Virus record (IMG/VR): IMGVR_UViG_3300005077_000059
Span: 1 to 36,351 of that record
Length of the DNA: 36,351 bases
Direction: 5' to 3' (one strand)
From: a virus
Lineage: Duplodnaviria > Caudoviricetes
Below are positions 1 through 28,568 of the stretch, one piece after another. The position numbers and the translations under genes were made by a program. The notes below the pieces were generated by a model. The model saw nothing but the letters and a program-made list of their open reading frames with translations, ran no database searches and was not told the DNA's origin. Position 1 is the first letter of the stretch; every line of letters begins with the position of its first letter.

Positions 1-99
1 GCGCGCCGCCGCGGACGGCGAGGTTGTGGTAGGCCTGCTCGAGGTCGCGGACCTGGGCCGCCTGCTCGCCCCACTTCAGGAGCTTGTGCGCGGCCGCTA
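1..99. repeat. 99-bp direct terminal repeat, left copy (circular assembly overlap)
   Basis: 1-99 is identical to 36253-36351, and an ORF reads continuously across the join. Confidence 0.97.
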
Positions 100-2424: not shown

Positions 2425-5055
2425 CTAGATCGTGATGAGGTCCACGAGCAGCGGCCCGTCCGGGAGCGGGAGATCCGGCGTAACCGGATCGCTCCCTGCG
2501 AACTCGTACTCGCGCACTTGGTCCAGGGCGATGTAGTCACCGGCCGCGGTGCCCTGGTCCACCACGGCAAGATACACTCTCACGCCATCGCGCCCCAGGC
2601 TGCGCAGGCTCGACGTGTCGAGCAGGCGCTCTTCGAGCACGTGCGAGTCGCCGCCCGTCACGCGCCAGAGCACGCGCCCGTCGCTCTCGCGCACGAGTGC
2701 GAGGAACTCGCCGGCGAGGTTGGAGGCGCCGGCGATCTTCACGCTCAGCCGGTTGCGCGTGAGCTCCCACGCGGCGCTCTTGATCCAGCCCACGCGCGTG
2801 TAGTCGCCCCAGGCCTGCCCGTTGAGCCCGCGGCCCGGCACGTCCTGCTGGTAGTGCGTGTTTATGTAGCTGTTGCCCTCCATGCCGCTCGCGCCCTCGC
2901 CGCCGGCCGCCGCCTGGTCGCCCCACACCGGCTGCCGGTAGAAGGCGCCGAGCGAGCCCTGCGAGTCCTCCACCGTCCACCGGAGCGAGAGGTCCATCAC
3001 GCCTTCGCGCGTGCCGACGAGCCCGGTCACGCCGCACATCGGCCGGACCGCGGGGTGCTCGCCAACGACGTCGCACGCCGAAAAGTCGAGCTCCACGAGC
3101 GCGATGAAGTAGAAGCCGCCGGGCGTCTCCAGCAGGTGCCCGCTCATGGCGTAGAGCGCGCCGGAGCCGGCGATCTGCACGAGCTCGGAAGCCTCGCCGT
3201 AGGAGCTCCCACTCTCCGAGGGGTAGCCGCCCGCGTTCATCACCAGCGCGCCGCTCGTGGAAGCGCCGAGCCACGGGGGCCCGAGGTAGCTGGCGCCGCT
3301 CTGGTGGCGCGTGCCGGAGCTTCCCTTGGGGAACCAGTGCCAGAGCGGCGGCACCTCGAGGATGTAGCTGCTCTCGAGCTGCCAGCCACCGGCGCTGGTC
3401 GAGACGCAGATGGGAGCGGGCTCGTGAGCGGGCGCGAGCCAGTTGGGCTGCGTGCCACCGGGGAACTTGGCGAGGCCATAGACGGTGTAGCTGGCGTTCG
3501 TGTAGCGCGCGAAGGCTCCGAGGTACCAGTTGCCACCCGAGAAGAACGGGCAAGCGTCGCGCGTGAACCGGTTCCAGTCCGTGTCGTAGTTGTAGGCCCA
3601 GCTCGCCTGCACGCCGCCGACCTTGGTCCAGTAGATCGCCGCGCCGCCGTTGAGCGGCTCCCAGTCGTCGAGGTCGTCAGAGGTGCAGCCGTCGAGGAAA
3701 ATCTTCTGCTCGCTCGTGGAGAGCTGCGTGGTGAGCCACGTGGCGCCCGTGAAGAACATCAGCCACTTGTAGGCCTCGAGGGGCGCGCCGCTCACACCGT
3801 AGTTCGGGTTCGCGAGCACGTGCGGCGCCCACACCTGGCACTTCGGATCGCCGTTCACGCCCGTGCCGATCTCCAGGTCCGCCTGGCGCGTCCACGTGCG
3901 GCAGTCCGTGCTCGTGTAGTGGTCGAAGTACTTGGAGCCCGTCAGCGCGATCGCGCAGCGGATGCCGATCTTGTGGTAGAGGCCGGTGCTCGGAACGTAG
4001 ACCATCGCGTGGTCGTTCATCTTCTCGCCGGCGTCGGCCACGATGAAGCCCTGGTTGAAGTTGAAGGCGACGCCCTCGCCGGGCAGCGTGGGCTCGCTCT
4101 CGCCCTCTTCCTGATACTCGTACTTGTAGCCGGTGAATCGCAGGCTTGCGGCGACGACGTCCATGCCCAGCGTGGGCACGCGCGATGGCGGCAGCACCTG
4201 CTCGCAGCGCGAGAAGGCGAGATAGCCCCCCAGCAGGTTGACGCGCTCCGCGGGCGGGTCGAGCTCGGCCAGGAGGTCCTGCATCAGGTAGCCCGCGTGC
4301 AGCACGAGGTGGTCCTTGCCGCCGACGCTGCCGGCCGGAGTGTCCATGCCCTTGGCGTTGCGCACGAAGAGCGTGATGTCGCAGTCGATGCGCCGGCCGG
4401 TGCGCCCGTGGCCGCCGGCCATGTCGGGCTCGGGCTCGACGTAGCGCACGGAGTGCACGACGATCAGCGCGTCCTTGAACCGCGCCTCGAGCGCCTGGCC
4501 TTCCCGCTCCTCGCCGGTGTCCTTGTCGCCCACCATCACCAGGTAGGCGTCCGGCGCCGCATAGCCGGCCGCGAGCGTGTTGGTGTAGGGCGCGCTCTGG
4601 AGCTCCTGGCGCAGGTAGCTGGCGACGTCGACGAGCATCTTATGCCACCACTCCAGTCGGTAGGTTTCCACTGCCAGCGGCGCGCTCGGCATCACGATCC
4701 CCCGCACGCATAGCCGCCACCAGAGCTCCGTCCCCGTCGCGGGCCAGCCCACCACCGGCGGCACGTCCTCGGGCTTCGTGTACCAGTCGAGCGCAATCTC
4801 CACGTCCATCGCCGTCTCGAGGTGCATCACGCCAGCCCAGTGGCCATAGCCGATCTGCTGGCGCGCCTCCGCGTCGGTGAAGACCTGCACGGCGACCTCG
4901 CCGTCCGTCCCGTCGAAGTTCCGGCAGCTGACCAGCAGCCAGAGCGGCTGCGTGCGCTCCTGCCCGGGGCCGATCCAGCTCAGGTCCTCGTGCGCGATGC
5001 GCAGCAGCTTCGGATGCGCGAACCTGCGATCCCGCTGCAGCCAGCCGTAGCCCAT
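2425..5055 (-). CDS. Putative tail terminator/completion protein fused to a GH32/clan GH-J-like beta-propeller glycoside hydrolase and a C-terminal beta-sandwich
   Basis: Occupies the terminator slot before the tube gene; alpha/beta segment LVDVASYLRQEL...ASLRFTGY; motifs MNDHAM, VWAPHV, TSDDLDDW, TRDACPF, QLESSYI; C-terminal VLWRVTGGDS...YLAVVDQGTAAGDYIALDQV resembles levanase-associated domains. Confidence 0.65.
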   Translation of the reverse strand: MGYGWLQRDRRFAHPKLLRIAHEDLSWIGPGQERTQPLWLLVSCRNFDGTDGEVAVQVFTDAEARQQIGYGHWAGVMHLETAMDVEIALDWYTKPEDVPPVVGWPATGTELWWRLCVRGIVMPSAPLAVETYRLEWWHKMLVDVASYLRQELQSAPYTNTLAAGYAAPDAYLVMVGDKDTGEEREGQALEARFKDALIVVHSVRYVEPEPDMAGGHGRTGRRIDCDITLFVRNAKGMDTPAGSVGGKDHLVLHAGYLMQDLLAELDPPAERVNLLGGYLAFSRCEQVLPPSRVPTLGMDVVAASLRFTGYKYEYQEEGESEPTLPGEGVAFNFNQGFIVADAGEKMNDHAMVYVPSTGLYHKIGIRCAIALTGSKYFDHYTSTDCRTWTRQADLEIGTGVNGDPKCQVWAPHVLANPNYGVSGAPLEAYKWLMFFTGATWLTTQLSTSEQKIFLDGCTSDDLDDWEPLNGGAAIYWTKVGGVQASWAYNYDTDWNRFTRDACPFFSGGNWYLGAFARYTNASYTVYGLAKFPGGTQPNWLAPAHEPAPICVSTSAGGWQLESSYILEVPPLWHWFPKGSSGTRHQSGASYLGPPWLGASTSGALVMNAGGYPSESGSSYGEASELVQIAGSGALYAMSGHLLETPGGFYFIALVELDFSACDVVGEHPAVRPMCGVTGLVGTREGVMDLSLRWTVEDSQGSLGAFYRQPVWGDQAAAGGEGASGMEGNSYINTHYQQDVPGRGLNGQAWGDYTRVGWIKSAAWELTRNRLSVKIAGASNLAGEFLALVRESDGRVLWRVTGGDSHVLEERLLDTSSLRSLGRDGVRVYLAVVDQGTAAGDYIALDQVREYEFAGSDPVTPDLPLPDGPLLVDLITI

Positions 5056-5057
5056 CG

Positions 5058-5558
5058 CTACAGGCTCCGAGGTGTGCGCTTCTCTGCATTGCTAACCACG
5101 CGGTTCATGAACGTCTCCGCGACGCGATCCATCAGCCTGCGATTCCAGCCGATCCGCAGGCGGTTGAGCTCCGGCCGGTTCAGGTAGTCGGCCTGCCCGC
5201 CATCATGCGCGCTGGCCTTGACCGCCTCGAGTTCTGAGATCCCGGCGCCGACGAGCACGCGATCGCGCCCGAGGTTCAGGATCCGCCAGCTCGCCTTGAG
5301 CAGGCCGGTCTTGCCAAAGAGCGTCCGCCCGGTGCGGGCCGTGCCCTTCCGCTTCGCATGCGCCTCGCTCAGCGGCGCGTAGGGCTTGCCATCGCTCAGC
5401 CCGACCTGCGCTTCCATGCTGGACACGATCTCCGCGGCCATCAGTGCGCCCGCCTCTTCCATGGCCTCGCGACGCTGCGGCGTCTGCTCCTCGAGCGTGA
5501 GCCGCAGCTCGCGGAGCATCGGGCCGAGGTCGCCCTTGTACTTCACCACGACGCTCAT
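5058..5558 (-). CDS. Phage virion morphogenesis / neck protein (Mu gpG, P2 gpS-like)
   Basis: ATG at 5558 overlaps the upstream TGA; motifs DGKPYAPLS...AKRK, TGLLKASW and ASAHDGG match the family pattern. Confidence 0.7.
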   Translation of the reverse strand: MSVVVKYKGDLGPMLRELRLTLEEQTPQRREAMEEAGALMAAEIVSSMEAQVGLSDGKPYAPLSEAHAKRKGTARTGRTLFGKTGLLKASWRILNLGRDRVLVGAGISELEAVKASAHDGGQADYLNRPELNRLRIGWNRRLMDRVAETFMNRVVSNAEKRTPRSL

Positions 5559-12473: not shown

Positions 12474-13904
12474 CTACTCCTGGCCGTCTGGCCCTGCGAT
12501 CCCTCGCTCCGCGGCGACGGCGTCGAAGGTGGCGCCGCTCTCCTCGAGGACGGCCTGCCGGCCGGTCTCGACCTGCCACCGCTTGATGATAACATCGCAA
12601 TACGCCGTGTCCATCTCCATCAGGAAGCTGCGGCGCTCCGAGCGCTCCGCGCCGATCAGCGTGCTGCCGCTGCCGCCGAAGAGGTCGAGCACGTGCTCGC
12701 CGCGCTTCGTCGAGTAGCGGATAGCGCGCTCGGCGAGCTCGACCGGCTTCTCGGTGAGGTGAACCATGCTCTGCGGGTTGACCTTCTTCACCGGCCAGAC
12801 GTCGGTGGCGTTGGTGGGCCCGAAGAACTGGTGCGCGGCGCCCTCCCGCCAGCCGTAGAAGCAGCACTCGTGGTTGCCCATGTAGTCCTTGCGCGTGAGG
12901 ATCGGGTGCTCCTTCACCCAGATAATCCCCTGGCTGAAGTAGAGGCCAGAGGCCTTGATGGCCGGAGGGTAGTTGATCCAGTTCGAGTAGCCGCCCCAGA
13001 TGTAGAAGGCGCGCCCGGGAATCAGCACGCGCGCCATGTTGCCGAACCACGCCAGCAGCAGCGCGTCGAAGGCGTCGTCGGTGATGAAGTCGTTGGCCAG
13101 CGGGCGATCCTTGGCGCGCATCTTTCCGGTCGGCCTGGACTTCGACTTGTGCCGCGCGAGGTCGAATCCCTGGTGGTGCATGCCGCGCGCATCGGAGGCC
13201 TCGACGGCGCTCTTCGTGGCAGGGAAGCTGGACAGCCCAGCGGCGATCGCGTTGTTGGAGCGCGGCTCGACCTTCACGTTGTAGGGCGGGTCCGTGTTCA
13301 CCAGGTGGACCGGCGCGCCGCCGAGCAGGCGGTCGACCGCGTCCGCGTCGCCGGAGTCGCCGCAGAGCAGCCGGTGCTTGCCGAGGATCCAGAGATCCCC
13401 CGTGCGCGTGACCGGCGTGTCAGGCGGCTCCGGCACCGGCGCGTCCTCGCCGGCCGTCCAGTCGCGGTCCAAGATGGCGTCGAGCTCTTCGCGGTCGAAG
13501 TACTGCGTCAGGTCGACGTCGCCGCGCGCCTCGAGCGCGGCCATGACCTCCGTGTCCCAGTCCAGCCCGAGCTCGCCCGTCCGGTTGTCCGCCACCGCGA
13601 GCTCGCGGCCGCGCGCGCTGTCGAGCGCCAGGTCCGTGCGCTGGACGACGACGAGCTCCTGGCCGGCGGTCTGGACCACGCGCATGGGCAGCCCGATCTC
13701 CCTGGCCTTTTCAACCGTCTTGTTGCCCGCGATCACTTTCCCGTCGCGGTCGACGACGACGCTCCGGCCGGCGCCCAGCCTGCGGAGGCTCTGCTCCACG
13801 GCCTTGCGCCCGCGCACGGTGCCGCGGTTGGGGTTGGCGTCGTCCAGCTCGAGCTCTGCGAGGTCGTGCAACTCGCGGGCCGGCTTGCGTCTGCGCTCTG
13901 CCAT
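12474..13904 (-). CDS. Beta-class amino (N6A/N4C) DNA methyltransferase with ParB-like N-terminal domain, 476 aa
   Basis: TDPPY precedes HLTEKPVEL and VLDLFGGSGSTLI; N-terminal SVVVDRDGKVIAGN...ADNRT; ATG at 13904 after GGAGG. Confidence 0.92.
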   Translation of the reverse strand: MAERRRKPARELHDLAELELDDANPNRGTVRGRKAVEQSLRRLGAGRSVVVDRDGKVIAGNKTVEKAREIGLPMRVVQTAGQELVVVQRTDLALDSARGRELAVADNRTGELGLDWDTEVMAALEARGDVDLTQYFDREELDAILDRDWTAGEDAPVPEPPDTPVTRTGDLWILGKHRLLCGDSGDADAVDRLLGGAPVHLVNTDPPYNVKVEPRSNNAIAAGLSSFPATKSAVEASDARGMHHQGFDLARHKSKSRPTGKMRAKDRPLANDFITDDAFDALLLAWFGNMARVLIPGRAFYIWGGYSNWINYPPAIKASGLYFSQGIIWVKEHPILTRKDYMGNHECCFYGWREGAAHQFFGPTNATDVWPVKKVNPQSMVHLTEKPVELAERAIRYSTKRGEHVLDLFGGSGSTLIGAERSERRSFLMEMDTAYCDVIIKRWQVETGRQAVLEESGATFDAVAAERGIAGPDGQE

Positions 13905-13906
13905 CG

Positions 13907-14191
13907 CTAGGCCTCCTCGAACATCTGGGCCAGTGCATCGATCACGCGGCTTCCGCGCGTGTCGATCTCCATGGCCTCCCTGCGCTCCGCGAGCGCGTCG
14001 TCGATGGTGCGGACCTGGCGCAGGAGCGCCTCTCGCACGGCGCGCTGCTCGCCGGTGGAGAGCCTGAGCCCCGGGTCGCGCTCGAGCTCGGCCGCCAGTG
14101 CCGCGCGGATCTGAGCCGCCGCGATGGCGCGGGCGACGTAGCCCACGAGCACGTCCTGCCTGAGCCGTTGATCGCCGATGCCGCTGGACAC
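13907..14191 (-). CDS. Hypothetical helical protein, 94 aa (first gene of the packaging operon)
   Basis: GTG at 14191 after GGGAGGT; abuts the methyltransferase start. Confidence 0.6.
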   Translation of the reverse strand: MSSGIGDQRLRQDVLVGYVARAIAAAQIRAALAAELERDPGLRLSTGEQRAVREALLRQVRTIDDALAERREAMEIDTRGSRVIDALAQMFEEA

Positions 14192-14203
14192 GGTCCACCT
14201 CCC

Positions 14204-14239
14204 ACGAAAGAGGCCCCACGCATGGCGGCGCGGGGCCTC
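14204..14239 (-). terminator. Putative intrinsic terminator upstream of the packaging operon
   Basis: GAGGCCCC...GGGGCCTC stem followed by TTTCGT on the minus strand. Confidence 0.55.
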
Positions 14240-14279
14240 GAGGAGCTCTCCCTGATCGGGTGATGTACTGGCAGGCGCG

Positions 14280-14308
14280 AGGTTGCCCGCCAGCGCCGCC
14301 ACTGTCAA
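14280..14308 (-). promoter_or_regulatory. Putative late promoter
   Basis: TTGACA-N17-CAACCT; the -35 overlaps the upstream TGA; the -10 lies inside an inverted repeat (CTGGCGGGC...GCCTGCCAG). Confidence 0.45.
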
Positions 14309-14826
14309 GAGCTTTGATCCTCCCGCGCCGCGCCGTCCTCGGGCTCGCCCGGGGATCGCGGCTCCTGGCTGGCGAGCTGCTCGTCCATGCTCGGCCGCAC
14401 GGGCAGCCTGCGCACGTTGGTCGTCGGCAGCGGGTTCCCGGCCGCGTCGACCAGGCGATTGTCGGGCACGAGCAGGTCGCCGGCCTTCATGCGCTCCTGC
14501 ATCTCCGCGACGGCCTGGCGGTCCTCTGCGACGTGGCGGGCGTACTCGGAGCGGCTCCGCTTGAAGCAGCGGTCCGCAAGCTCCAGCGCCTCCTCGAGCA
14601 GCCCGCTCGTCACCTCCGCACGCGCGCCGCCGAGGCTCGTGCTCCCGGCGAGTAGCGCCTGGAAGATGCCGCCCGTGAGGCGCATGAAGTCGTTCGCCGT
14701 GAAGCCGACACCGCTGTCGACGATCTGGACGAGCTGCACATGCGGCCCCTCGGGCAGCGCCTGCTGCGGTGCGCGGGCATGGTGCGCGCGGGCTTCGGGC
14801 GGCTGCCTTCGGCTCCTGTTTCCCAT
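14305..14826 (-). CDS. Hypothetical protein, 173 aa
   Basis: ATG after AGAGGAG; fits the minus-strand gene tiling. Confidence 0.65.
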   Translation of the reverse strand: MGNRSRRQPPEARAHHARAPQQALPEGPHVQLVQIVDSGVGFTANDFMRLTGGIFQALLAGSTSLGGARAEVTSGLLEEALELADRCFKRSRSEYARHVAEDRQAVAEMQERMKAGDLLVPDNRLVDAAGNPLPTTNVRRLPVRPSMDEQLASQEPRSPGEPEDGAAREDQSS

Positions 14827-14895
14827 CGCGATCTCCTCTCGACGTGAGGGGCGCCGGCGCCGGCCCCACCAGCAACCGGCGCCCCGGGGGGGGGA

Positions 14896-15636
14896 TTACT
14901 TCTTGCGCGTGCTGCGCTTGGCCGCGGGCTTGCCCTTGCCGCTCGCCGCCGGCTTGCCGGCGGGCTTGCAGGGCTCCGCGCTCTTCGTGCTCATGTCGAC
15001 CACCCCCTTCTGCTCGCTGGGTTTGACCAGCGTGGGCCCGGTCACCGGGTGCGCGATCCAGGAAGCCTCCGGCTCGCCGTCCGCGAAGGGGAGCGGTTCG
15101 CCATCCTCGCTCACGACGATCCGCACGCCGGGCTGCCCGCAGCCGGGGCACGAGAAGGCCTGGTCCGCGTGCGTTGGCACCGTCTTGACCTTGGCCACGG
15201 GGTCCATGCCGCAGTTGCTGCACATCGCCTCGTAGAAGCCGGGCGCCACGAGCTTCTCGGCGCGGCCCTTGCTGCCGACGTCGGCCGGGAGGGGGCTGCG
15301 CACCATCGGCTTCTCGCCGGCCGCGGGCGCGGCGGCCTTGCCCGGGTCCTCGCCCTCCGCGGCGAGCGCGAGCTCGTGCTGCGGGAAGGCCTGCGTCGGC
15401 ACGCCGCCCGACTGGTGGCAGACGCGCCGGTACTGGTGCAGCCAGTCCTCGACGGCGGCCGCGAGCTTGGCGTGCGGGCCCTCGCCGGGCGCCTGGTGCC
15501 AGAGCACCGCGGCCTCGACGAGGCGGATGACGCTGCGGTTGGCGCCCTCGTCGGCGCCGAGGATGGGGAAGAGCTTGACGGCCTCGGCCTTGAGGTCGTC
15601 GACGCTATCGGCCTGGATTACGATGCGGCTTGCCAC
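14896..15636 (-). CDS. Hypothetical zinc-ribbon protein with Lys-rich tail
   Basis: CSNCG...CPGCG pairs; start coupled to the upstream stop. Confidence 0.65.
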   Translation of the reverse strand: MASRIVIQADSVDDLKAEAVKLFPILGADEGANRSVIRLVEAAVLWHQAPGEGPHAKLAAAVEDWLHQYRRVCHQSGGVPTQAFPQHELALAAEGEDPGKAAAPAAGEKPMVRSPLPADVGSKGRAEKLVAPGFYEAMCSNCGMDPVAKVKTVPTHADQAFSCPGCGQPGVRIVVSEDGEPLPFADGEPEASWIAHPVTGPTLVKPSEQKGVVDMSTKSAEPCKPAGKPAASGKGKPAAKRSTRKK

Positions 15637-16175
15637 TACGGGCTCCTCTCGATCGAGCGCCGCCTGGCGCTCCGGGTTTCCGACACGGCGGGCTCGCCAG
15701 CCGGGATCTCGCGCAGCTCGAGCTGGGGGCTTTCTGCCTCCGCCTCGGGCCGGCTGAACTCCTCACGGATCCACGGGCCACCGGGCCCGTCGACGGGCTT
15801 GCGCTCGCGCACGCCCACGAAGCAGCGGTCGGGGTAGATCGCCGCCGCGACCTTGACCTTGAGCCGCGAGTCCTCCGGCCAGTAGGCGCCGGCGCGGGTG
15901 ACCGGCCCGCCCTTCTCCTCGCGGTAGTTCTTCGCGCCCTTCACCTCGTGGTACTCGTACTCCATGCTGGGCAGGAGCACCTCGAAGTCCGGGGTGTAGG
16001 TGGTCTTATCGTCGATCCCGAGCCGGAAGCGGACGCACTCGAAGCGCCACGCCAGGATCTCGCCGGCCTGGCGCAGGCGCTCGAGGTGCTCCGCGTAGCG
16101 GCGCTCGGTGCGGTTGGTGACGCCGGCAGACGGGCGGTAGGCACGGCCGCGCCCCCACCGGGGGTGACCGGGCAT
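15636..16175 (-). CDS. DUF1064-like PD-(D/E)XK endonuclease, 179 aa
   Basis: ERRYAEHL...GEI, YTPDF, HEVKG and RLKVK motifs; ATG at 16175 overlaps the upstream TGA. Confidence 0.75.
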   Translation of the reverse strand: MPGHPRWGRGRAYRPSAGVTNRTERRYAEHLERLRQAGEILAWRFECVRFRLGIDDKTTYTPDFEVLLPSMEYEYHEVKGAKNYREEKGGPVTRAGAYWPEDSRLKVKVAAAIYPDRCFVGVRERKPVDGPGGPWIREEFSRPEAEAESPQLELREIPAGEPAVSETRSARRRSIERSP

Positions 16176-16780
16176 CAGCCCATGTTCTCGAGGCTCGCGG
16201 GATCGCTGTTGCCGGCCACGCGCTTCAGGTCGCGCCAGCGCTCGAGCGTGGCGTCCGGATCCTCGCCGCGCGACTCGGCGCCGAAGAGGAAGGTCTCCGC
16301 GGCCTGGATGGCGCGCGGCTCCTTCATGCCCGTGTCCATGGCGATCTGGACCATGGCCTGGCGCACGTTCTCGCGGCGCTCGAGGTACTCCTGGCTCGGC
16401 TGGCCGGCCGCGGGGCGGACGTAGCCCTTGGGCTGCGCGCCCTTGGCCGCCGCGGGCTTGGCGCCGGGCTTGCCCGTGGCAGGCGGCGCGAGCGGGCGCA
16501 GCTGCCCGTTGGGCATCCGGCGGCCGACCTCGTGCGTCTGGACCACGCCTTCGGCCGTGACTTCGAAGGCGTCGGCGAAGGCGAGCATCACGCCGATGGC
16601 GTTGGCCGCGCCGGCCGGGGTGTTGTAGGGCCCGGCGAGGCGCTGCGGGGCGCCGAGGATGAGGTACTTCCCGTCCGGCTGGGGCGCGAGCCGCAGCAGG
16701 CGGGAGAGGTTGATCCGGCGCGCCGCCATCTCGGCCTCGCGCTGCGGGTCGACGAGCTTCTGCGGGAGACGGTCCACCAT
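16175..16780 (-). CDS. Hypothetical protein, 201 aa
   Basis: Tiles tightly between its neighbours; no recognisable motif. Confidence 0.65.
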   Translation of the reverse strand: MVDRLPQKLVDPQREAEMAARRINLSRLLRLAPQPDGKYLILGAPQRLAGPYNTPAGAANAIGVMLAFADAFEVTAEGVVQTHEVGRRMPNGQLRPLAPPATGKPGAKPAAAKGAQPKGYVRPAAGQPSQEYLERRENVRQAMVQIAMDTGMKEPRAIQAAETFLFGAESRGEDPDATLERWRDLKRVAGNSDPASLENMG

Positions 16781-16783
16781 GGC

Positions 16784-17206
16784 CTACACCTCCGTCGCGC
16801 CGCGATCGGCCATCCGCTCGGCCTCGAGCGCCGCCTCGGCCTCCGCCGCCAACGCGCCGCCGCGCTCCGCGGCCAGCGCCTGCTCCTCCGGCGTGCGCTC
16901 GAGCGTGGAGCCCTCCGCGCCGGTCTTGCCACCGTTGGGCGCCTCCAGCTCGGCCAGCTGCTCCTCGCTGAGCACGCCCGCGCGGTCGGTGCCGAAGCCG
17001 GTGCGGCAGTAGGGGCCCCACGCCTGCTCGCACCGCTCGGTGCTGGGGAAGGCGCTCATGGGCAGCTTCAGCGGGTTGAACTCGCGGCGGCTGCCGGCGT
17101 TGATCTCGCCGGAGGCCTCGAGCTGGAAGTGCACGGTGGCGCCATCGGGCGTGGTGAACTGCGCCCAGCCGTTGCCGAAGGTCACGAAGAGTTCCTGCTC
17201 GTCCAT
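16784..17206 (-). CDS. Hypothetical protein, 140 aa
   Basis: ATG after AGGAGGG, downstream of a predicted promoter. Confidence 0.7.
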   Translation of the reverse strand: MDEQELFVTFGNGWAQFTTPDGATVHFQLEASGEINAGSRREFNPLKLPMSAFPSTERCEQAWGPYCRTGFGTDRAGVLSEEQLAELEAPNGGKTGAEGSTLERTPEEQALAAERGGALAAEAEAALEAERMADRGATEV

Positions 17207-17246
17207 CGGGTTCCCTCCTGGGGTTTGGTGCGCGCTGCGCGGGGCT

Positions 17247-17276
17247 GGTATAGCCCCGCCCCGCCGGCGCCGTCAA
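17247..17276 (-). promoter_or_regulatory. Putative sigma70-type promoter
   Basis: TTGACG-N18-TATACC; the -35 overlaps the upstream TGA; the -10 sits inside GGGGCT...AGCCCC. Confidence 0.55.
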
Positions 17277-17512
17277 CGTGAATTGCGAAAGAGATCCGCC
17301 TTCGGGCAGCGCGCGTGGTGCGGCGCGTAGCCCCAAACCGCCTCGCCGCCGGCGCGCACCTGCACCACGCGCCCCGTGGGCTCCACCACCATGGCGCCGG
17401 TGTCCTCGCCCGGCCGCCAGGTCCGCGGCGGCGGCTCGCACGGGATCGGGCGGCCTGTGGTGGCGCTCTTGATCCAGACCAGCTGCGCGCCGCAGCCCTT
17501 GCACGTGCTCAT
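17273..17512 (-). CDS. Small phage Cys/His zinc-binding protein, 79 aa
   Basis: MSTCKGCGAQLVWIK...IPCE...GYAPHHARCP, a pattern common in small phage proteins. Confidence 0.7.
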   Translation of the reverse strand: MSTCKGCGAQLVWIKSATTGRPIPCEPPPRTWRPGEDTGAMVVEPTGRVVQVRAGGEAVWGYAPHHARCPKADLFRNSR

Positions 17513-17745
17513 GGCCGCGCCACCAGCTTGAGCCGGAAGCGGCCGCGCGGCAGCACCTCGGTGACCACGTAGTCGTGGCCGGCGATGGTGAAGCCGTCGC
17601 CCACGCGCAGCGGCCGCACCTCGCCGGGCGCCCACGGCACGCGCACGCCGCTCGCCGGCTTGGAAGCCGGGCAGCCCGCATTGTGGGTTCCGTCCGGCGC
17701 CCCGCAGTGCTCGCACCACGCGATGGGCTCGCTACGATTCTCCAT
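17509..17745 (-). CDS. Hypothetical zinc-finger protein, 78 aa
   Basis: CEHCG..H...CP; ATG at 17745 after GGAGAGGG. Confidence 0.6.
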   Translation of the reverse strand: MENRSEPIAWCEHCGAPDGTHNAGCPASKPASGVRVPWAPGEVRPLRVGDGFTIAGHDYVVTEVLPRGRFRLKLVARP

Positions 17746-18046
17746 GGCCCTCTCCTTCGGGCTTGAGGTCCCAGAGCAGCCGCACGGCCATTGCCGCCAC
17801 CTGCAGCGCCTCCTGCTGCATGCGCTCGCGGCTGCCCCCGTGGTAGGTCGCATCGAGCGCGGCCTGCACCAGCTCGCCGGCCTCTTCTGCCACGATGGCC
17901 GCCTGGTGAACCAGATCCTCCGGCCAGCCTGGGTGCTGCTGCGCGGCACGGTTGAACTCCTGCCAGATCGCGCCTTCGATCCTCGATGCCGGGATATCCA
18001 CCGCGCCTGGCAAGCAGCCATTCCAGAAGTCGATCACGGCAGCCAC
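17732..18046 (-). CDS. MazG-like all-alpha NTP pyrophosphohydrolase
   Basis: AIVAEEAGELVQA...QEALQVAAMA, an EEXXE motif. Confidence 0.65.
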   Translation of the reverse strand: MAAVIDFWNGCLPGAVDIPASRIEGAIWQEFNRAAQQHPGWPEDLVHQAAIVAEEAGELVQAALDATYHGGSRERMQQEALQVAAMAVRLLWDLKPEGEGHGES

Positions 18047-18049
18047 CCC

Positions 18050-18946
18050 CTACAGCGAGGCCCACGTGGCCGGGTTGGTGTAGGCGTGGACGTTGCACGT
18101 GGAACCGCCGACCGCCGGCCGCTCCGCGTAGGCCAGGCCCACGATGAGGTTGCGGCCAGCCGCGATGCTGAGCAGGTCCGCGAAGACCTCGCGGTAGCTC
18201 GTGCCGCCGGCATAGCCGCCGTAGCGCTCCTGCTCCGGGCGCGTCGTCGCCCAGGTCTCGCCGTCCGCGCGCAGGCCCTTCACGAGGACCAGGTCGCCCT
18301 CGCGCGCGACGCTCTGCAACTCCTGCGGCCGGCACCAGTCGCCGAAGCCCTCCCACAAGCGCGTGCCGTGCCGCCGCCAGCCGCCGTTGACCACCAACTG
18401 CTGGTTCATGCGCTTGAGCAGCCAGATCAGCGTCGCCTCTTCCTGCTCCATGCGCGCGCGCTGCTCCTGCATCCACTGATCGGGCGAGCCGTCATAGCCG
18501 GGCCAGACGATGCGCCGCTGCTCGAGCGCGAGCAGCCACCACTCGACGCTCTGGAAGTCGTCCACCAGCACGCCGGCCTGCTGCGGGTTCTCGCGGCAAC
18601 ACTCGAGGATCTCCGCGAGCAGGCGCCCGGCGTGCTCGCCGTCGATCAGGTAGGGCCACGGGCCCTTGGGGCTGCGGACCTCGGGCAACCCAGGCGTGAG
18701 ATCCATCGGGCCCGGCTGCCAGTAGTCGCATGACGGCCGCGCCCGGTATGAGCAGCCCCATCGGTCGAAGTAGCGCAGGAGCTTCGGCATCAGCTGCGCC
18801 TGCCGGTAGCGCTGCCAGCGGTCGCTGATCTCGACCATGGCCTGGCCCTCCACCACCACCAGGTCGTTGGCCAGCACGTCGCGCTCCTGGACGCGCTTGG
18901 CAGCTGCCGTGCCGCCGCCGGAGTAGAGAAAGCACACTGAGCGCAT
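18050..18946 (-). CDS. Hypothetical protein, possible TIM-barrel glycoside-hydrolase-like, 298 aa
   Basis: ATG at 18946 after AAGGAGG; spaced GVLVDDF, LVVNGG and LWEGF motifs; CDS is solid but the function call is weak. Confidence 0.5.
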   Translation of the reverse strand: MRSVCFLYSGGGTAAAKRVQERDVLANDLVVVEGQAMVEISDRWQRYRQAQLMPKLLRYFDRWGCSYRARPSCDYWQPGPMDLTPGLPEVRSPKGPWPYLIDGEHAGRLLAEILECCRENPQQAGVLVDDFQSVEWWLLALEQRRIVWPGYDGSPDQWMQEQRARMEQEEATLIWLLKRMNQQLVVNGGWRRHGTRLWEGFGDWCRPQELQSVAREGDLVLVKGLRADGETWATTRPEQERYGGYAGGTSYREVFADLLSIAAGRNLIVGLAYAERPAVGGSTCNVHAYTNPATWASL

Positions 18947-18964
18947 GAGCGCCTCCTTGCGTTG

Positions 18965-18997
18965 GGGGCCCGGTGGCGAGAGCCACCACCGGGCCCC
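18965..18997 (-). terminator. Hairpin after ssb
   Basis: 12-bp perfect stem GGGGCCCGGTGG/CCACCGGGCCCC; no U-tract. Confidence 0.45.
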
Positions 18998-19010
18998 GCC
19001 GGGGTTGTGC

Positions 19011-19490
19011 CTAGAAAGGCAGGTCGTCCTCGTCGTCCGCCACGTAGCCGCGATCGCCGCCGCCTTGCTGATGCTGCTGCGCGGCCGCCGCGGGCTGGCT
19101 CGCCGGCGGCTGCGTGGCCGCCTGCGCCTGGGGCTGCGCGGCCGCGGTCGCCACCGCGGCATCCCGCGCGCCGATCATGAACCAGCGGCTCACCAGGATC
19201 TCCGTGGACCAGCGCTTCACGCCGTCCTTCTCCCACTCGCGCGTTCGCAGGTTGCCCTCGAGCCAGACCTGCTGCCCCTTCTTGCAGTAGCGGGCCATGT
19301 TCTCGGCGGCCTTGCCGAAGAGCACAACGTGGTGCCACTCGGTGTGATCCTGCCAGGCGCCATCGCGCTTCGTGCGCTCGTTCGTGGCGACGCTGACGTT
19401 GCAGACGGCCGTTCCGCTCTGCGCGTAGCGGAGCTCGGGGTCCTTGCCCAGGTTTCCGATCAGCTCCACGCGGTTCAGTCCGATGGCCAT
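19011..19490 (-). CDS. ssb: Single-stranded DNA-binding protein
   Basis: LNRVELIGNLGKDPELRY, TEWH and EGNLRTREW motifs; acidic DDEDDLPF tail. Confidence 0.97.
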   Translation of the reverse strand: MAIGLNRVELIGNLGKDPELRYAQSGTAVCNVSVATNERTKRDGAWQDHTEWHHVVLFGKAAENMARYCKKGQQVWLEGNLRTREWEKDGVKRWSTEILVSRWFMIGARDAAVATAAAQPQAQAATQPPASQPAAAAQQHQQGGGDRGYVADDEDDLPF

Positions 19491-19491
19491 G

Positions 19492-20763
19492 CTACTTCAC
19501 CTCCACGATCTCGAGCTGCACGGCTCCGGTTTCGCGCACGTCCTCGACCCACACCTGCAGGTCGTGCTCGCGCGCGAGCTCGTCCAGGTATCTCCGGCTC
19601 GCCAGGTCGAGCACCGAGCCGTCCTTGATGCGCAGGAGCCTGAGCTCAGGCTGGCCCATCCTGGCGAGGGCGCAGGCCACGCGCAGGCGCTGCGAGGTGC
19701 TGAGCTGCGGGAAGACGACGCCGCCGACGACCAGCTCGCCGTCCTCGCTCACCTCGAGGCCGCGGATAGGCAGCTTGCGGCGCACCTTGACCATGAGCGC
19801 CTCGCGGGCCGCGCGCGCCTGCGCGAGCGCTTCCTCTTCGCGCGCGACGATGGCGGCCTGCTTATCGACGCTCTCGTGCTCGCGGACGAGCCGGTCGACG
19901 TCCAGAACCGTCGAATTGTGCTGCCGCACCCGCTCGATCTCCTGGTCGATCGCCTCGAGGCTGCCAGCGGGCTCCGGCACTGGCTTCTCGAACACCTCGA
20001 GCCGCTTCTGCAGGTCCTTCCGCTCAGCCACCAGGTTGGCGCGCTCGGCATCCAGGCGGTTGATCTTGTCCTCGATCTGAGCGATGCGCTGCTTGGCCTC
20101 GTGCGCACGAGCCACCATCGTGCTGCGGGCGCCAAAGGCCTTGAGCAGCGCGTCGCGCTTGGCCTCGAGGTCCGCCAGGTCGATGGGCTCGATCCGCTCG
20201 TCCGCCTCGAGGAGCCGCGCCGCCGCAGGCAGGTAGGCCTCGAGCTCGCGCAGGCGCACCCGCATCTCCTCGAGCAGTCGGCCCTCGACGCGGCGGCGGT
20301 CGTAGGATGCCCGCTGCCGGCCCTCGATCTCGTCGAGCTCTTCGTGCACGCCGGCGACGGCGAGCACTGCGTCGCGGCGCTCGCGCGCCGTGCCCGAGCA
20401 CCAGGCCCAGGGGTCCATGGCGATCGCGTTCACCAGCCCGTCGAGCAGCTGCTGCGGGCGGGCGAGCGTCGCCCCGTCCGCGCGCGTCACCGTGAGCGAT
20501 GCGCCCTCGGCCGTGATCCGCCGCCGGACCGTGTCGCCGTTGTCGAGCGTCAGCTCCACCGTGGCGGCCTCGGCGCCGTTGCGAATCACGCCATCCGGGA
20601 TCGCCCGCTTGCCGGCGAGCGCGAAGAGGATCGAGTCCAGGACCGTGCTCTTGCCGGACCCGCCGGGCCCGACGACGTAGATCACCGGAACGTCCGGCGG
20701 CGGTTCGAGCGTGAGGTGCTCCAGGCTGCGCACGTTGCGCAGCTCGAGGCGTTGGATCTTCAC
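19492..20763 (-). CDS. SMC/Rad50-like ABC ATPase with coiled coil
   Basis: KIQRLELRNVRS, Walker A GPGGSGKS, central coiled coil, LSTSQ signature-like motif, IKDGSVLD. Confidence 0.85.
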   Translation of the reverse strand: MKIQRLELRNVRSLEHLTLEPPPDVPVIYVVGPGGSGKSTVLDSILFALAGKRAIPDGVIRNGAEAATVELTLDNGDTVRRRITAEGASLTVTRADGATLARPQQLLDGLVNAIAMDPWAWCSGTARERRDAVLAVAGVHEELDEIEGRQRASYDRRRVEGRLLEEMRVRLRELEAYLPAAARLLEADERIEPIDLADLEAKRDALLKAFGARSTMVARAHEAKQRIAQIEDKINRLDAERANLVAERKDLQKRLEVFEKPVPEPAGSLEAIDQEIERVRQHNSTVLDVDRLVREHESVDKQAAIVAREEEALAQARAAREALMVKVRRKLPIRGLEVSEDGELVVGGVVFPQLSTSQRLRVACALARMGQPELRLLRIKDGSVLDLASRRYLDELAREHDLQVWVEDVRETGAVQLEIVEVK

Positions 20764-21866
20764 GTGGTCTCCTTCGGCCCCAGGTTGGCGAGGATGCCCG
20801 TCAGGGCCTCTCCCGCGGTGGTGAAGTCGGCCGACGCGCGGGCCCCTGGGGCTCTATCCGCCCCGCCCGCCGGCCCTCTGGCTGCCGCCGCCTGGCGGTC
20901 AGCTCGCACTTTGTTGCGCTCGAGGCGCGCGTGCTCGTCGCGGCGCCACTGCTCGCGGGCCTCTTCCTCCGGCGATCGCCGGGAGGACTCCGAGCGCCAG
21001 CGGGCGTGGAGCTGCTGGGCGTGCTCGCGGAACTTCGCGCCGATCCCGCCGCGGGCCAGGAGCACCGGCCCCCAGTGCGGGTGGCGGGCGGCCCAGCGGA
21101 TGACCTCGACGAGCTCCGGCACCGGGTACTGGCCCGCCACCACGCGGAGCGCCTCCGCGTCGTGCATCGTGAAGGTCGGCCGCGCCGCCGGATGCGCAGC
21201 CCTCAGTTCTGCCTGGAGTAGGCGCCCGAGATCGACGCCGACCGCAGGGGGCGCCGGATCCGGGCCTGCGAGCTCTGCAGTGGCGTCCGAGCCGGCGATC
21301 TGGGGCACCGGCGCCAGCGAGGCGGTCGCGGGCGCTCCTGGCGCCTCAGGCTCGACCGGTCGAGAATCGACCGCTCGCACACGCGGCCCGCCGTTGTCGT
21401 TGTCGTTGACGTTGACGTTGTCTTTGACATTGGGGATTCCAGACGGCTGGCACTTGGATGCCGGATGGCTGCCAAGTGGCTGCCGGTTGGCTGCCAAGTG
21501 GCTGCCATCGGGCGGCCCAGGATAAGTGCTTGGCTTATAGTCCCTTGCGCGGACCTTCTGGAAGTCGGCCCAGTCGTGCAGCTCGCAGTAGCGGGCGCCG
21601 CCGGCCATGTAGGTGCGGATGAGCCGCCGCTCCTCGAGCGTCGCGAGGTAGCGCTCGACCTCGTCGACGGGGCGAGGCTGGCCCTCGACGAGCAGGTAGG
21701 CCTGGGCCGCGAGCACGGCCGGCATGATGGGCAGGCGCCCGTCATCGTCGGCGTGGTCGACCAGGTACTGCCAGAGGGTGAAGGCCGGCAGGCCGATCTT
21801 CTCGTGCTTGTGCGAGTCGCTCCACACGCCAGGGTAGTGGAGCCGCGGACGGACCTTGTGCGCCAT
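20760..21866 (-). CDS. Replication initiator (replisome organizer, lambda O analogue), 368 aa
   Basis: LWQYLVDHADDDGR...LIRTY...HDWADFQK winged-helix N-terminus; internal iterons; ATG at 21866 after GAGGAG. Confidence 0.8.
   Translation of the reverse strand: MAHKVRPRLHYPGVWSDSHKHEKIGLPAFTLWQYLVDHADDDGRLPIMPAVLAAQAYLLVEGQPRPVDEVERYLATLEERRLIRTYMAGGARYCELHDWADFQKVRARDYKPSTYPGPPDGSHLAANRQPLGSHPASKCQPSGIPNVKDNVNVNDNDNGGPRVRAVDSRPVEPEAPGAPATASLAPVPQIAGSDATAELAGPDPAPPAVGVDLGRLLQAELRAAHPAARPTFTMHDAEALRVVAGQYPVPELVEVIRWAARHPHWGPVLLARGGIGAKFREHAQQLHARWRSESSRRSPEEEAREQWRRDEHARLERNKVRADRQAAAARGPAGGADRAPGARASADFTTAGEALTGILANLGPKETT
21455..21509. repeat. Five tandem 11-bp iterons TGG(C/A)TGCCnnn; probable replication origin
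   Basis: tggatgccgga, tggctgccaag, tggctgccggt, tggctgccaag, tggctgccatc inside the initiator gene, next to a lower-GC GTTGTC/GTTGAC tract at about 21393-21431. Confidence 0.75.
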
Positions 21867-21988
21867 GTTGAGCTCCTCGGGCGGCACCCTGCCATGGCCT
21901 CCGCCCCGCGTCCAGCAGGAAGTTGGGAGCCCGCCGCGGGCTCGCACTCGCGCGCGCCCCACGCCCGCGTTCCCCGCGGGCTCCCATG

Positions 21989-22054
21989 TGGCCCAGGCTG
22001 GACTCGAACCAGCCCCGCCGGGCGCAACATCCCGGCGGCCTCCCGCGCTGAGCC
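21989..22054 (-). ncRNA. tRNA-like element lacking a D-stem (66 nt)
   Basis: Acceptor GGCTCAG/CTGGGCC plus discriminator A; T-arm GCTGG-TTCGAGT-CCAGC; central stem CGCCGGG/CCCGGCG with an 8-nt loop. Confidence 0.6.
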
Positions 22055-22086
22055 AAGGCGCCGGCCTCAGCGGCCGGCGCGCGCTC

Positions 22087-23046
22087 TCATTCCCCCCTGC
22101 TCATCCCGCGCAGGCGCTCGGCCGTGCCGGAGCTCCCCCTGCGCTCAGAAGCTGCCGAGCCGAGCTCATGTGACGTGGCGTCGGCACCCTGGGGTTGGCC
22201 CGTCTCGGCATTCTCCCACGCGGCCTCGCTGATGGGCCGCCAGTCCTGATCGCTCCACTCGATCGGCCGCGCCGGGTCCGCGCCCTGCGCGAGCTCCTGC
22301 GGCTCGCCGGCCTCGGAGCGCTCGTCGAGCTGCATCGCCATGCCCATCTCCACGCTCGTGGGCACGTACTTGAAGGCGCGCCGCGTTGGGCTCTTCGCGC
22401 ACATCTCTGCGAAGTGCGTGAGCCACGGACCCTGGTAGGGCTTGCCCCTCGATCGCTTGGCGTGCTGCTGCTTGACCCAGGCGAAGACCTCGTCCAGCTC
22501 GTGGCGCTCCATGACCTTCGGCACCTCGTGCCCGCCGGCCAGCACCGGCACGCAGTAGGCCGCCACCAGCTCGCCGCGGTCCTGGCCGCGGTAGGGCTTG
22601 TGGTGGACGAAGGGTTTCCCGCCGAGCCCGTAGTCGAACTCGTCGCGGTCGTAGACGGCGTGGGCCACGATGCGCTCGACGCGCGGGCTCCGGTAGCCGA
22701 GCTCGACGAGCCCGCGGTAGCCCAGCACGAGCTCGACGTCGTAGCCCTGCCGGCGGCTGCTGTAGAAGGGCAGGAGCCAGGCGTGCCCCAGGTGCCGGCC
22801 GGGCTCCAGACCGATCTGCGCGCAGGCGACGAGCGCGCCCACGAGGCTCGGGCCGGTGCAGGCCAGCAGCTGCGGCGTGCGTCGCACCTCGTTGTAGGCG
22901 ATGCGGATGAGCCGCTCCGCGTTCAGGTGCTTGGGCAGCAGCGAGTCGATCTGCTTCTGCTGCCGCTCAAAGAGCTGCCCCAGCGTGACCACCGGGGCGG
23001 GCGACTGTGGGGCGCCGGCGGCGGCGCCCCCTTCGACGGTTGCCAT
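22087..23046 (-). CDS. recT: RecT-family single-strand annealing recombinase
   Basis: LLPKHLNAERLIRIA, QIGLEPG..LGHAWLLPF, LGYRGLVEL and PW.THFAEM motifs. Confidence 0.95.
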   Translation of the reverse strand: MATVEGGAAAGAPQSPAPVVTLGQLFERQQKQIDSLLPKHLNAERLIRIAYNEVRRTPQLLACTGPSLVGALVACAQIGLEPGRHLGHAWLLPFYSSRRQGYDVELVLGYRGLVELGYRSPRVERIVAHAVYDRDEFDYGLGGKPFVHHKPYRGQDRGELVAAYCVPVLAGGHEVPKVMERHELDEVFAWVKQQHAKRSRGKPYQGPWLTHFAEMCAKSPTRRAFKYVPTSVEMGMAMQLDERSEAGEPQELAQGADPARPIEWSDQDWRPISEAAWENAETGQPQGADATSHELGSAASERRGSSGTAERLRGMSRGE

Positions 23047-23067
23047 GGTGAGCTCCTCTCGATCGGG

Positions 23068-24009
23068 TTACGCGCTCACGGCCCGCCAGTTGGGCCGGAA
23101 GACGCGGATCTCTTGCTGGCGCGCGAAGGCCTTGGCGAGGTCCGGATGCGCCTCGCTCAGGGCCTTGCCGTCGAGCGTCGTGCGCTTCTCCACCTTCCAC
23201 GTTGCCAGGGATCGGCCGCTCGGGTCAAGTAGCTGCCCGGCTTCGCCCATGGCGCTCTTCACGGTCAGCTCGAGCGCGGATTTCTTCGCCTCGACCGCCT
23301 CGAGCTGCTCGCGGACGGCCTTGAGCTCCATGAGCGCCTGCAGCACCGCGGGGCCGGCGACCGTGCTCGCCACCGTGTTGCGCGGCCAGCGCATCGCCAC
23401 GTCCTCGAGGTCGCGCGGCTCCGGCGGCCGGCGGTCGACGACGCGCTGCCAGAACTCTGCGAGCATCGGCACCATGGCGCCGATGACCTTCTCGTCGCGC
23501 AGGACGAGATAGGCCCGGTAGTCGCGCCCGCCGATGAGGCTGGACATGTGCCAGCGCTCCCAGCCCGTGACGGCCAGGTAGTGCTGGACCTGGATGTAGT
23601 AATGCTCGGGCACGAAGGCGGCGGATCCGGCATCCACCACGCCGGGCGGCCCCCACTCGTGCGCGAGGTGGTGCCCGGCCGTCTTGCCCTCCCAGCCCTC
23701 GGGGAATCCCTGCAGGCGCCGATCGATGTGGCCGAGCAGGAAGGGGTGATCCGGATGCTTGAAGGTTGCGCCGACGCGGCGCAGCGGCTGCCCAGTATCC
23801 TGGGTCCATCGATCCGCGAGCGCGCCCTCGAGAACCTCGCCCCAGTAGACGGCCTCGTTGCCGCTCAGGTCCGGCTCTTCGGCCTCGCCGACCTTCTCGA
23901 GGTAGAGCTGCAGCGGGCTCTTGTAGGGGTGCAGCCCGAGGGCCGCCGCCGCGTCACTTCCTCCGATGCCCGCGCGCCGGGCCTCCCGTTGCTCTGCTGT
24001 CAGTGCCAT
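23068..24009 (-). CDS. YqaJ-like viral recombinase/exonuclease, 313 aa
   Basis: RRAGIGGSDAAAALGLHPYKSPLQLYLEK, GHIDR, EGKT and YYIQVQHYLAVTG motifs; ATG at 24009. Confidence 0.95.
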   Translation of the reverse strand: MALTAEQREARRAGIGGSDAAAALGLHPYKSPLQLYLEKVGEAEEPDLSGNEAVYWGEVLEGALADRWTQDTGQPLRRVGATFKHPDHPFLLGHIDRRLQGFPEGWEGKTAGHHLAHEWGPPGVVDAGSAAFVPEHYYIQVQHYLAVTGWERWHMSSLIGGRDYRAYLVLRDEKVIGAMVPMLAEFWQRVVDRRPPEPRDLEDVAMRWPRNTVASTVAGPAVLQALMELKAVREQLEAVEAKKSALELTVKSAMGEAGQLLDPSGRSLATWKVEKRTTLDGKALSEAHPDLAKAFARQQEIRVFRPNWRAVSA

Positions 24010-24229
24010 GAGCTCCTCCGTTGAGTTGGCCGAGCTGCTCCAGCAGCTCGGCTTCGGTGATGCCAAGCCAGGCAGCCAGGCTCGCCGGGTTCACGCGCCA
24101 GTGGTTCCGGGCGATCTCCACGCCCTCGAGCGCGTGCTCGGGGTCGCGGAGGTAGGCCACTACGGTCCGCGGATCCTCGATCCCCAGGAGCGCGGCCACC
24201 TGCTTGGGCTTCGGCCAGTGGTAGTTCAT
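23954..24229 (-). CDS. HTH DNA-binding protein (excisionase/HTH_17-like)
   Basis: PKQVAALLGIE.PRTVVAYL...WRVNPASLAAWL winged-HTH pattern. Confidence 0.7.
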   Translation of the reverse strand: MNYHWPKPKQVAALLGIEDPRTVVAYLRDPEHALEGVEIARNHWRVNPASLAAWLGITEAELLEQLGQLNGGAHGTDSRATGGPARGHRRK

Positions 24230-28169: not shown

Positions 28170-28568
28170 CTAGTAGCTCCAGAGCGCAGGCCGTGGGGCC
28201 TCCTCCGCTCTGAGGGTATCGAGGTGCACGTAGCGGCCGCCCCACGGGCCGCGAGCCATGATGCCGATGCCGGAGAATCCGCGAGCGAGGGCGCCCTGCA
28301 CGATCCGATAGGCCTGCTCGCCAGCCACTGCCACGTCCACCGCCTTGCCCAGCGTGTGCGGGCCGGAGCCGGCGCTCGAGCTGGAGCCGACCTGCGCGTC
28401 GTGCTTCGGGCATCGATACGCGCTGTTGAGCTTGAAGGGAAAGCCGAGCTCGCGCCGCAGCGCCTGCAGCATGTCCATGAAGGCCTCGTCCATGAGCGCC
28501 TCGCCGCAGCCGCAGTGGCAGGTGAGCTCCTCGCGCGAGAAGTTGGGCCATCGCGTTGGCGTGCTCAC
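28170..28568 (-). CDS. Endolysin, peptidase M15 family zinc peptidase
   Basis: NFSREELTCHCGCG, SAYRCPKHD, HTLGKAVD (H-x6-D) and YVHLD motifs. Confidence 0.92.
   Translation of the reverse strand: MSTPTRWPNFSREELTCHCGCGEALMDEAFMDMLQALRRELGFPFKLNSAYRCPKHDAQVGSSSSAGSGPHTLGKAVDVAVAGEQAYRIVQGALARGFSGIGIMARGPWGGRYVHLDTLRAEEAPRPALWSY

Follow-up and report, generated by a model that had tools for sequence, protein, structure and literature searches.

A tail-terminator-like phage protein carrying a GH32-like glycosidase module, a candidate enzyme collar at the phage neck

Tail terminators and head-closure proteins of phages are usually seen as small, purely structural rings, and hunts for depolymerases target tail spikes and fibres. 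Why, in a tailed phage, should the gene directly following the neck gene encode a protein of 876 amino acids (aa), more than half of which resembles a sugar-cleaving enzyme? The question is raised by the complete record IMGVR_UViG_3300005077_000059, a stretch of 36,351 nucleotides (nt; hereafter the window) from a phage genome with a GC content of 70.5%, and by the protein labelled P0001 that it encodes. Our favoured answer, to which we give a probability of about 0.58, is that active glycosidases, arranged around the neck as a six-fold collar, cut the glycan of the host matrix or capsule and thereby keep the virion from being retained. A preliminary description of this DNA, made from its letters, had proposed a collar of about six glycanases at the head-tail junction, and that proposal is kept here as the best explanation of the fusion, of its two folds and of its predicted catalytic triad.

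The open reading frame (ORF) of P0001 is uninterrupted and follows the neck gene, as the preliminary description had stated, whereas the tube gene that it placed on the other side is recognized by position and size only. The GC content at third codon positions is 0.86-0.98 in each 60-codon block, like that of the other genes of the phage. The chain is composed of a beta-sandwich (residues 3-139), a terminator fold (138-317), a propeller (about 329-665) and a second sandwich (about 690-855). A phmmer search of P0001 against 1.84 billion representatives gave 59 matches, 6 of them near full-length with 40-49% identity, and a profile search gave 8 matches with 3 further fusions. The same fusion was thus found in 9 other full-length or near-full-length proteins (39-75% identity) from separate assemblies, ten including P0001, which shows that it is neither due to chance nor an assembly artefact. 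Two genes joined by misassembly or by chance read-through would agree with the one public read run, mapped at 97%, in which a single 151-base piece, showing 2 differences, mapped to the propeller and none bridged the junction, but the identical in-frame join in nine independent proteins reduces the probability of this explanation to practically nil. A programmed -1 frameshift yielding a short terminator was also considered, and rejected as the ORF contains no -1 slippery heptamer of the form X XXY YYZ (Y = A/T). Six close relatives of 238-322 aa are constituted of the N-terminal domain and the terminator only, and end just before the linker. In a terminator tree of 15 rows, from which three fragments were left out, fused and unfused forms were intermixed, a single unfused clade being rejected by the approximately unbiased (AU) test (p 0.008). 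As a single query, P0001 gave zero matches in IMG/VR and in 50,697 INPHARED phages.

The N-terminal half was modelled by AlphaFold (AF2) over residues 1-317 from an 18-row alignment, with a predicted local distance difference test score (pLDDT) of 80.5. The 139-aa N-terminal domain announced by the preliminary description takes the form of a beta-sandwich in this model. Its top fold match is a FlgK domain with Z 7.4, a middling value for a common arrangement, and its sequence is 22-62% identical among relatives. For residues 138-317, VIA structure comparison with 48,161 solved chains gave as best match a P74-26 neck chain (Z 12.2, root-mean-square deviation (rmsd) 3.2, 144 residues aligned), followed by T5 p142 (11.7), the gene transfer agent (11.6), phiCD508 (11.6), Mu (11.2) and lambda gpU (3fz2, 10.1). 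The first 31 rows all cover residues ~136-317, and all have titles of phage or contractile injection system neck, collar or terminator proteins, except 2gjv and 4acv. BFVD and the ESM Atlas agree with a terminator fold in this half of the protein. Foldseek against the PDB returned mostly coronavirus-spike rows with template modelling (TM) scores of about 0.1, which are noise, and a probability of 1.0 only for 2gjv and 9mu3, while the terminator profile gave only chance matches to PDB sequences (E 0.25 or worse). Predicted as a complex of four copies, residues 128-316 scored 0.00, which argues in neither direction. The gpU-like fold suspected from the letters is therefore supported by structure comparison (Z 10-12 to P74-26, T5, Mu and lambda gpU), and P0001 is predicted to be a gpU-type tail terminator from this fold and from its position after the neck gene. 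It is the one terminator-like gene detected in the phage genome.

Regarding the enzyme module, the Atlas model of residues 329-665 matches GH32N/GH43 propellers with TM scores of 0.80-0.81 (by target), the best alignment (0.81, by target) extending over 269 residues of a GH32N/GH43 domain. With a 31-row family profile, GH32 structures rank first (3RWK, E 8e-12; BT1760 6R3R, E 2e-10). The four motifs of the preliminary description stand where it had placed them (Table 1), and its GH32-like propeller with a three-acid triad is upheld, D348, D500 and E561 being in register with GH32 by alignment. The register with BT1760, in which D169 is the stabiliser and E221 the acid/base (PMC6560043), was obtained by counting along the printed profile alignment. 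The D, RD and E of the triad are kept in 39/39 aligned sequences, which are those that cover the propeller (the fragments P0015, P0017 and P0019, the unfused terminators and the sandwich-only matches were left out), and they belong to the 9 acidic residues of the module, out of 54, that are kept in at least 17 of the 18 neck fusions. The invariant Arg of RD is a GH-J trait. Around the first Asp, the D-x-x-hydrophobic spacing and the WAP are those of GH43 (3QZ4 alignment), and the substrate motifs NDPNG and WSG of GH32 are absent from P0001, with NDH and WAP in their place.

No Pfam GH32N, GH32C or GH43 match was obtained for P0001, and the neck fusion P0004 reaches 16.5 bits against Pfam GH43 (cut-off 32.2). 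Cellular relatives pass Pfam GH32N (30-65 bits, cut-off 22.1), some of them exceeding the cut-offs of both GH32N and GH43, and none shows GH32C. A phage-only profile gave zero matches to PDB sequences. The module of P0001 is predicted to work like a clan GH-J furanosidase; we call it GH32-like and do not file it within GH32 because the two substrate motifs differ and because related profiles also reach propellers of the GH43, GH130, GH117 and GH137 types. These same two observations make the sugar substrate uncertain. The fructanase activity assumed in the preliminary description is not established, given the replaced motifs and the lack of a Pfam family, and we regard a fructan substrate as doubtful.

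The C-terminal sandwich is an accessory type other than Pfam GH32C. This type recurs in true GH32 enzymes, since another part of the chain contains a Pfam GH32N or GH32C domain in 4 of the 9 sandwich-only matches that were scanned, in agreement with the likeness to levanase-associated domains noted previously. A genome scan gave one weak sandwich-only match, in a Pirellula metagenome-assembled genome.

Table 1. Position in the window of P0001, of its domains and motifs, and of the adjacent genes.
Feature	Position	Strand	Basis
P0001, terminator-glycosidase fusion, 876 aa	2425..5055	-	intact ORF; 9 relatives of same layout
N-terminal beta-sandwich, residues 1-137	4645..5055	-	AF2 strands; on unfused terminators too
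gpU/Mu-type tail-terminator domain (predicted), residues 138-317	4105..4644	-	VIA structure comparison, Z 10.1-12.2
Acidic/Pro linker, residues ~318-330	4066..4104	-	alignments; unfused relatives stop just before
GH32-like five-bladed propeller (predicted), residues ~331-665	3061..4065	-	Atlas model; family profile
NDH motif, D348 predicted nucleophile	4009..4017	-	aligns with D of NDPNG, GH32 6NU7 (8-row profile)
WAPH motif, GH43-like	3820..3831	-	aligns with WAP of GH43 3QZ4 (8-row profile)
RD motif, D500 predicted transition-state stabiliser	3556..3561	-	aligns with RDP/D169 of BT1760
ES motif, E561 predicted acid/base	3370..3375	-	aligns with EC/E221 of BT1760
C-terminal beta-sandwich, residues ~690-855	2491..2988	-	accessory domain; invariant D713, D833, D845
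Neck / tail-completion gene	5058..5558	-	Phage_tail_S, phrog_26; directly upstream of P0001
Head-tail adaptor-like gene, 248 aa	5555..6301	-	phrog_195, E 0.013; position
Putative tail tube gene, 355 aa	1348..2415	-	position and size only; adjoins P0001 downstream

The same module was also detected on other neck proteins. In 6 proteins of about 640 aa (P0017 is truncated) it follows a ~90-aa domain of the gpFII type; the Pfam cut-off of Phage_attach (lambda gpFII) is passed by 4 of the 6, P0010 falls just below, and P0004 shows only a faint phrog_82 match. At the loci L001 and L005, the gpFII fusion stands in a lambda-like order ahead of gpZ and of a separate 143-aa terminator (phrog_4204, E 6e-19 and 2e-16). 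The locus L002 encodes a 722-aa fusion with a different head of ~150 aa, located between a neck gene and a tube candidate; this short terminator is putative, being recognized by position and look with no hidden Markov model match, and no likeness between the long and short terminator domains was detected by hhalign. A further lead only is P0033, with a weak SU10-adaptor match (E 8.5e-4, below the cut-off). Module-bearing neck rings other than the terminator described at first, that is the gpFII head-closure ring and the second, putative terminator type, are new with respect to the preliminary description.

The 18 terminator- and gpFII-fused modules constitute one clade (Shimodaira-Hasegawa-like approximate likelihood ratio test, 99-100), and AU tests reject a single clade for the ten long-terminator modules (p 0.007) as well as for the six gpFII modules (p 0.001). 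A single origin per anchor type is thus rejected by the trees, and the module of P0001 is closer to that of the gpFII fusion P0004 (58%) than to those of most terminator fusions. Distal-tail and tail-tip proteins are common to the window phage, L001 and L005, with 33-47% identity. The fact that neck proteins recur as partners of the module argues that neck display itself is selected.

Divergent copies of the module with long inserts were observed in P0032, P0033 and P0039; the first two begin with an adaptor-like domain, and the copy of P0039 seems to stand alone. A more distant copy with an intact triad is located at the C-terminus of P0027, a large protein of 1508 aa without annotation, encoded on contigs of up to 116 kb and perhaps a component of the virion or baseplate.

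The outgroups of these phage modules are cellular secreted proteins with a hydrophobic leader and FlgD-Ig/T9SS-like or FGE domains, which can be aligned over the full module (hhalign probability 100, E 6e-72, 468 columns). Among the 20 proteins whose taxon was looked up, most of them without one, P0034 bears the name Candidatus Krumholzibacteria, and records of Krumholzibacteriota share clusters with two L008 genes. The distal-tail protein of L001 and one cellular paralogue of L006 have an identical NCBI locus-tag prefix, a binning link that may be wrong. In tetranucleotide composition, the window correlates with L006 at 0.98 and with the single other high-GC control at 0.88, which gives weak support. 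We infer a transfer from host to phage because of the cellular diversity of the family, and not from a rooted test; the likely source of the module is a family of enzymes that the host group secretes, this group probably being Krumholzibacteria-like bacteria. Going further, we tentatively suggest, at somewhat less than even odds, that a siphophage lineage captured the secreted glycosidase of its host group and repeatedly shifted it among core neck rings as a plug-in matrix-clearing collar. The rings used would be the two terminator types, the gpFII head-closure ring and perhaps the adaptor, a list that we hold equally tentatively. On L006 itself, three secreted GH32-like paralogues lie within 21 kb of the bacterial contig (8270-11635, 13619-15472 and ~20536), and no sugar transporter was seen among its printed ORFs.

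How could such a collar be built and work? Six copies of P0001 would likely form a ring that caps the tail tube, with the enzymes held outward. P0001 appears to be the only terminator of the phage, so every virion would bear the enzyme, in about six copies. Homologous terminators are hexamers (PMC12407722), and in phiCD508 gp53 a C-terminal linker extends out to the sheath (PMC11948020), which by analogy makes a C-terminal cargo outside the terminator ring plausible; the C-terminus of P0001 would point outward in the same way, and its linker of ~13 residues would leave the enzyme beside the ring. Catalysis would be retaining, of the GH-J type, through D348, D500 and E561, and the target would likely be an extracellular furanoside glycan of the host. 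With a tail length of ~0.15 nm per tape-measure residue, as is the general rule, the 643-aa tape measure would correspond to a tail of about 95 nm. The collar would then be distant from the tip, and therefore would not itself open the receptor site; its role would be to prevent the head and neck from becoming stuck in a thick matrix or capsule as the tail makes its way to the cell.

Several observations weigh against this reading. The neck is located far from the tail tip, and the six close relatives with the same terminator and no enzyme indicate that the enzyme is dispensable. Queried alone, P0001 has no match in Pfam, PHROGs, NCBIfam or the PDB sequences, and its GH32 link comes via profiles and predicted models; NDH and WAP differ from the GH32 motifs, and the related profiles spread over the other propeller families named above. 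The triad was placed by sequence alignment, its convergence in three dimensions being presumed, and the single-sequence fold of the full-length protein had a pLDDT of 32. The trees are 'quick' ones (quick posterior mean site frequency model), and the AU tests were run with LG+G4, for which false rejection of 5/71 true clades is known. As for the host, the link comes from the binning of a relative's contig and from composition.

Some of these points would suit a different use of the same active collar, namely release, in which new virions are freed from the matrix of the lysed cell or from decoy glycan, as by a receptor-destroying enzyme. A collar about 95 nm from the tip and an enzyme dispensable in relatives agree with it, as does an apparent indifference to the choice of anchor ring, which suits a task that requires no set position relative to the receptor. 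An enzyme produced in soluble form at lysis would suffice for this purpose, as do the capsule enzymes of phiNIT1 (PMC6966330), and yet all 18 close phage copies are joined to neck proteins; we thus consider release unlikely. Less likely still is a role of the propeller and sandwich as a multivalent adhesin that binds sugar in a first reversible attachment, in the manner of the carbohydrate-binding modules of lactococcal neck passage structures, with slow or absent hydrolysis. Host-binding neck carbohydrate-binding modules have been shown for 936 phages (PMC6669499), and P0001 and four other neck fusions have lost the RDP proline, but the three acids are kept in 18/18 neck fusions despite deep divergence and several changes of anchor. 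Binding-only derivatives of enzymes usually lose a catalytic acid.

It could also be supposed that the enzyme is cleaved off after translation and acts as a soluble depolymerase, the fusion merely timing its production with the late genes. The linker is indeed short, acidic and Pro-rich, and a soluble phage levanase, LevP, is known (PMC6966330). However, the linker sequence is not conserved, no conserved internal start exists (relatives have K, Q, W or L in place of M346), and the fusion partners within the close clade are always neck proteins and never other late proteins, which renders cleavage quite improbable. The matrix-cutting collar remains our preferred explanation.

Comparison with known systems shows where P0001 is ordinary and where it departs from them. 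The fold of residues 138-317 is like that of lambda gpU, Mu gp37, T5 p142 and P74-26 gp92 (3fz2, 9khy, 8bcp, 9oab; rmsd 2.8-3.4, 127-144 residues aligned) and, as for these terminators, the gene follows a neck gene. However, known terminators are structural rings of 130-175 aa, whereas P0001 adds an N-terminal sandwich and an enzyme module of ~550 aa in the same chain. In P74-26, separate proteins with Ig domains form a collar around the terminator hexamer (PMC12407722). The GH32 fructanases BT1760 (6R3R), Aspergillus endo-inulinase (3RWK) and sucrose-6-phosphate hydrolase (6NU7) have the propeller, the beta-sandwich and the D/RD/E of P0001, but P0001 differs from them by its NDH and WAP and by a sandwich that is not Pfam GH32C. 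The same propeller, sandwich and triad are present in the secreted FlgD-Ig/FGE proteins (P0034, HEX5131027.1), which are uncharacterized and have a hydrophobic leader and a C-terminal FlgD/T9SS-like domain where P0001 has the neck protein.

Glycan-degrading enzymes around the neck have been described for the pre-neck appendages gp12 of phi29 and for Dpo7 of a Staphylococcus phage (PMC9863714, PMC5380687), and the collar appendages of phi29 digest wall teichoic acid (PMC9863714). Neck-mounted depolymerases are thus known, but as separate homotrimers of a different fold on the collar of short-tailed or other phages, and not as a propeller within the terminator chain. Phage GH32-type enzymes are also known in the Bacillus phage levanases (phiNIT1 LevP, SP10), which are presumed to be host-derived and, unlike P0001, have no structural anchor and are not described as spike or neck proteins (PMC6966330, PMC5380687). 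Lactococcal neck passage structures present carbohydrate-directed neck domains and domain shuffling (PMC6669499, PMC10684548), but the proteins concerned are fibre-like accessories whose heads are of a binding or lyase-like type, and not the terminator or head-closure ring. In phage Goslar, according to a preprint, collar filaments of unknown role are located on the terminator and are not an enzyme fusion. Searches of an open-access library brought up no paper on the fusion of a glycoside hydrolase to a terminator or to a head-closure protein.

Neck-ring glycosidases escape annotation, as illustrated by the absence of any Pfam, PHROG or NCBIfam match for P0001. The neck would tolerate a cargo of ~60 kDa per subunit, a property of use in phage display and in engineering with laboratory strains. 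The module should be a soluble, assayable domain from an uncharacterized GH32-like family that Candidatus Krumholzibacteria also possess, and could bring both a novel glycosidase specificity and an indication about the surface glycan of these bacteria. If the plug-in collar is true, virion-borne depolymerases would have a route other than through tail spikes, and the surface glycan of an uncultured phylum would become accessible to study.

The remainder of the genome has the organization of a tailed phage. The record is labelled 'direct terminal repeats', with a CheckV estimate of 54%; its ends overlap by 99 bases (window 1-99 = 36253-36351), it closes to a circle of 36,252 bases, and the tape-measure gene crosses the join stop-free. 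On the minus strand are found in series the terminase, the portal, a Mu-F-like head protein, the scaffold, the capsid protein, the adaptor, the neck gene and P0001, followed downstream by the tube candidate, two chaperone-sized genes and the tape measure across the origin. The stop of the neck gene is 2 nt ahead of the start codon of P0001, and the AGGAGG ribosome site of the putative tube gene overlaps the stop of P0001. The phage is taken for a siphophage because none of the scanned ORFs of the window was named as a sheath in the Pfam and PHROG library scans. The tube candidate had no family or phage-record match in the libraries and phage records searched, and no likeness to the tube candidate of L002 was detected. 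The adaptor-like protein has a beta-rich C-terminal extension of ~120 aa, a second decoration at the neck, with no likeness by hhalign to the N-terminal sandwich of P0001.

Among the other genes, the tail-tip protein of 1563 aa (window 28825-33516, minus strand) is without Pfam match; its residues 7-1314 are common to L001 and L005, and its final domain of ~230 aa appears by eye to be LamG-type-lectin-like. A tandem pair of tail-tube paralogues of ~130 aa each was observed in L001 (6599-7396) and L005 (2943-3747), and an ORF that looks glycosyltransferase-like by eye lies between the capsid and adaptor genes of L002 (7226-8689). In the window, genes for a DNA methylase, an SSB-like protein, an AAA/SMC-like ATPase, RecT and YqaJ are located at 12474-24066 (minus strand), and the lysis region includes a MepK-like peptidase at 28170-28568.

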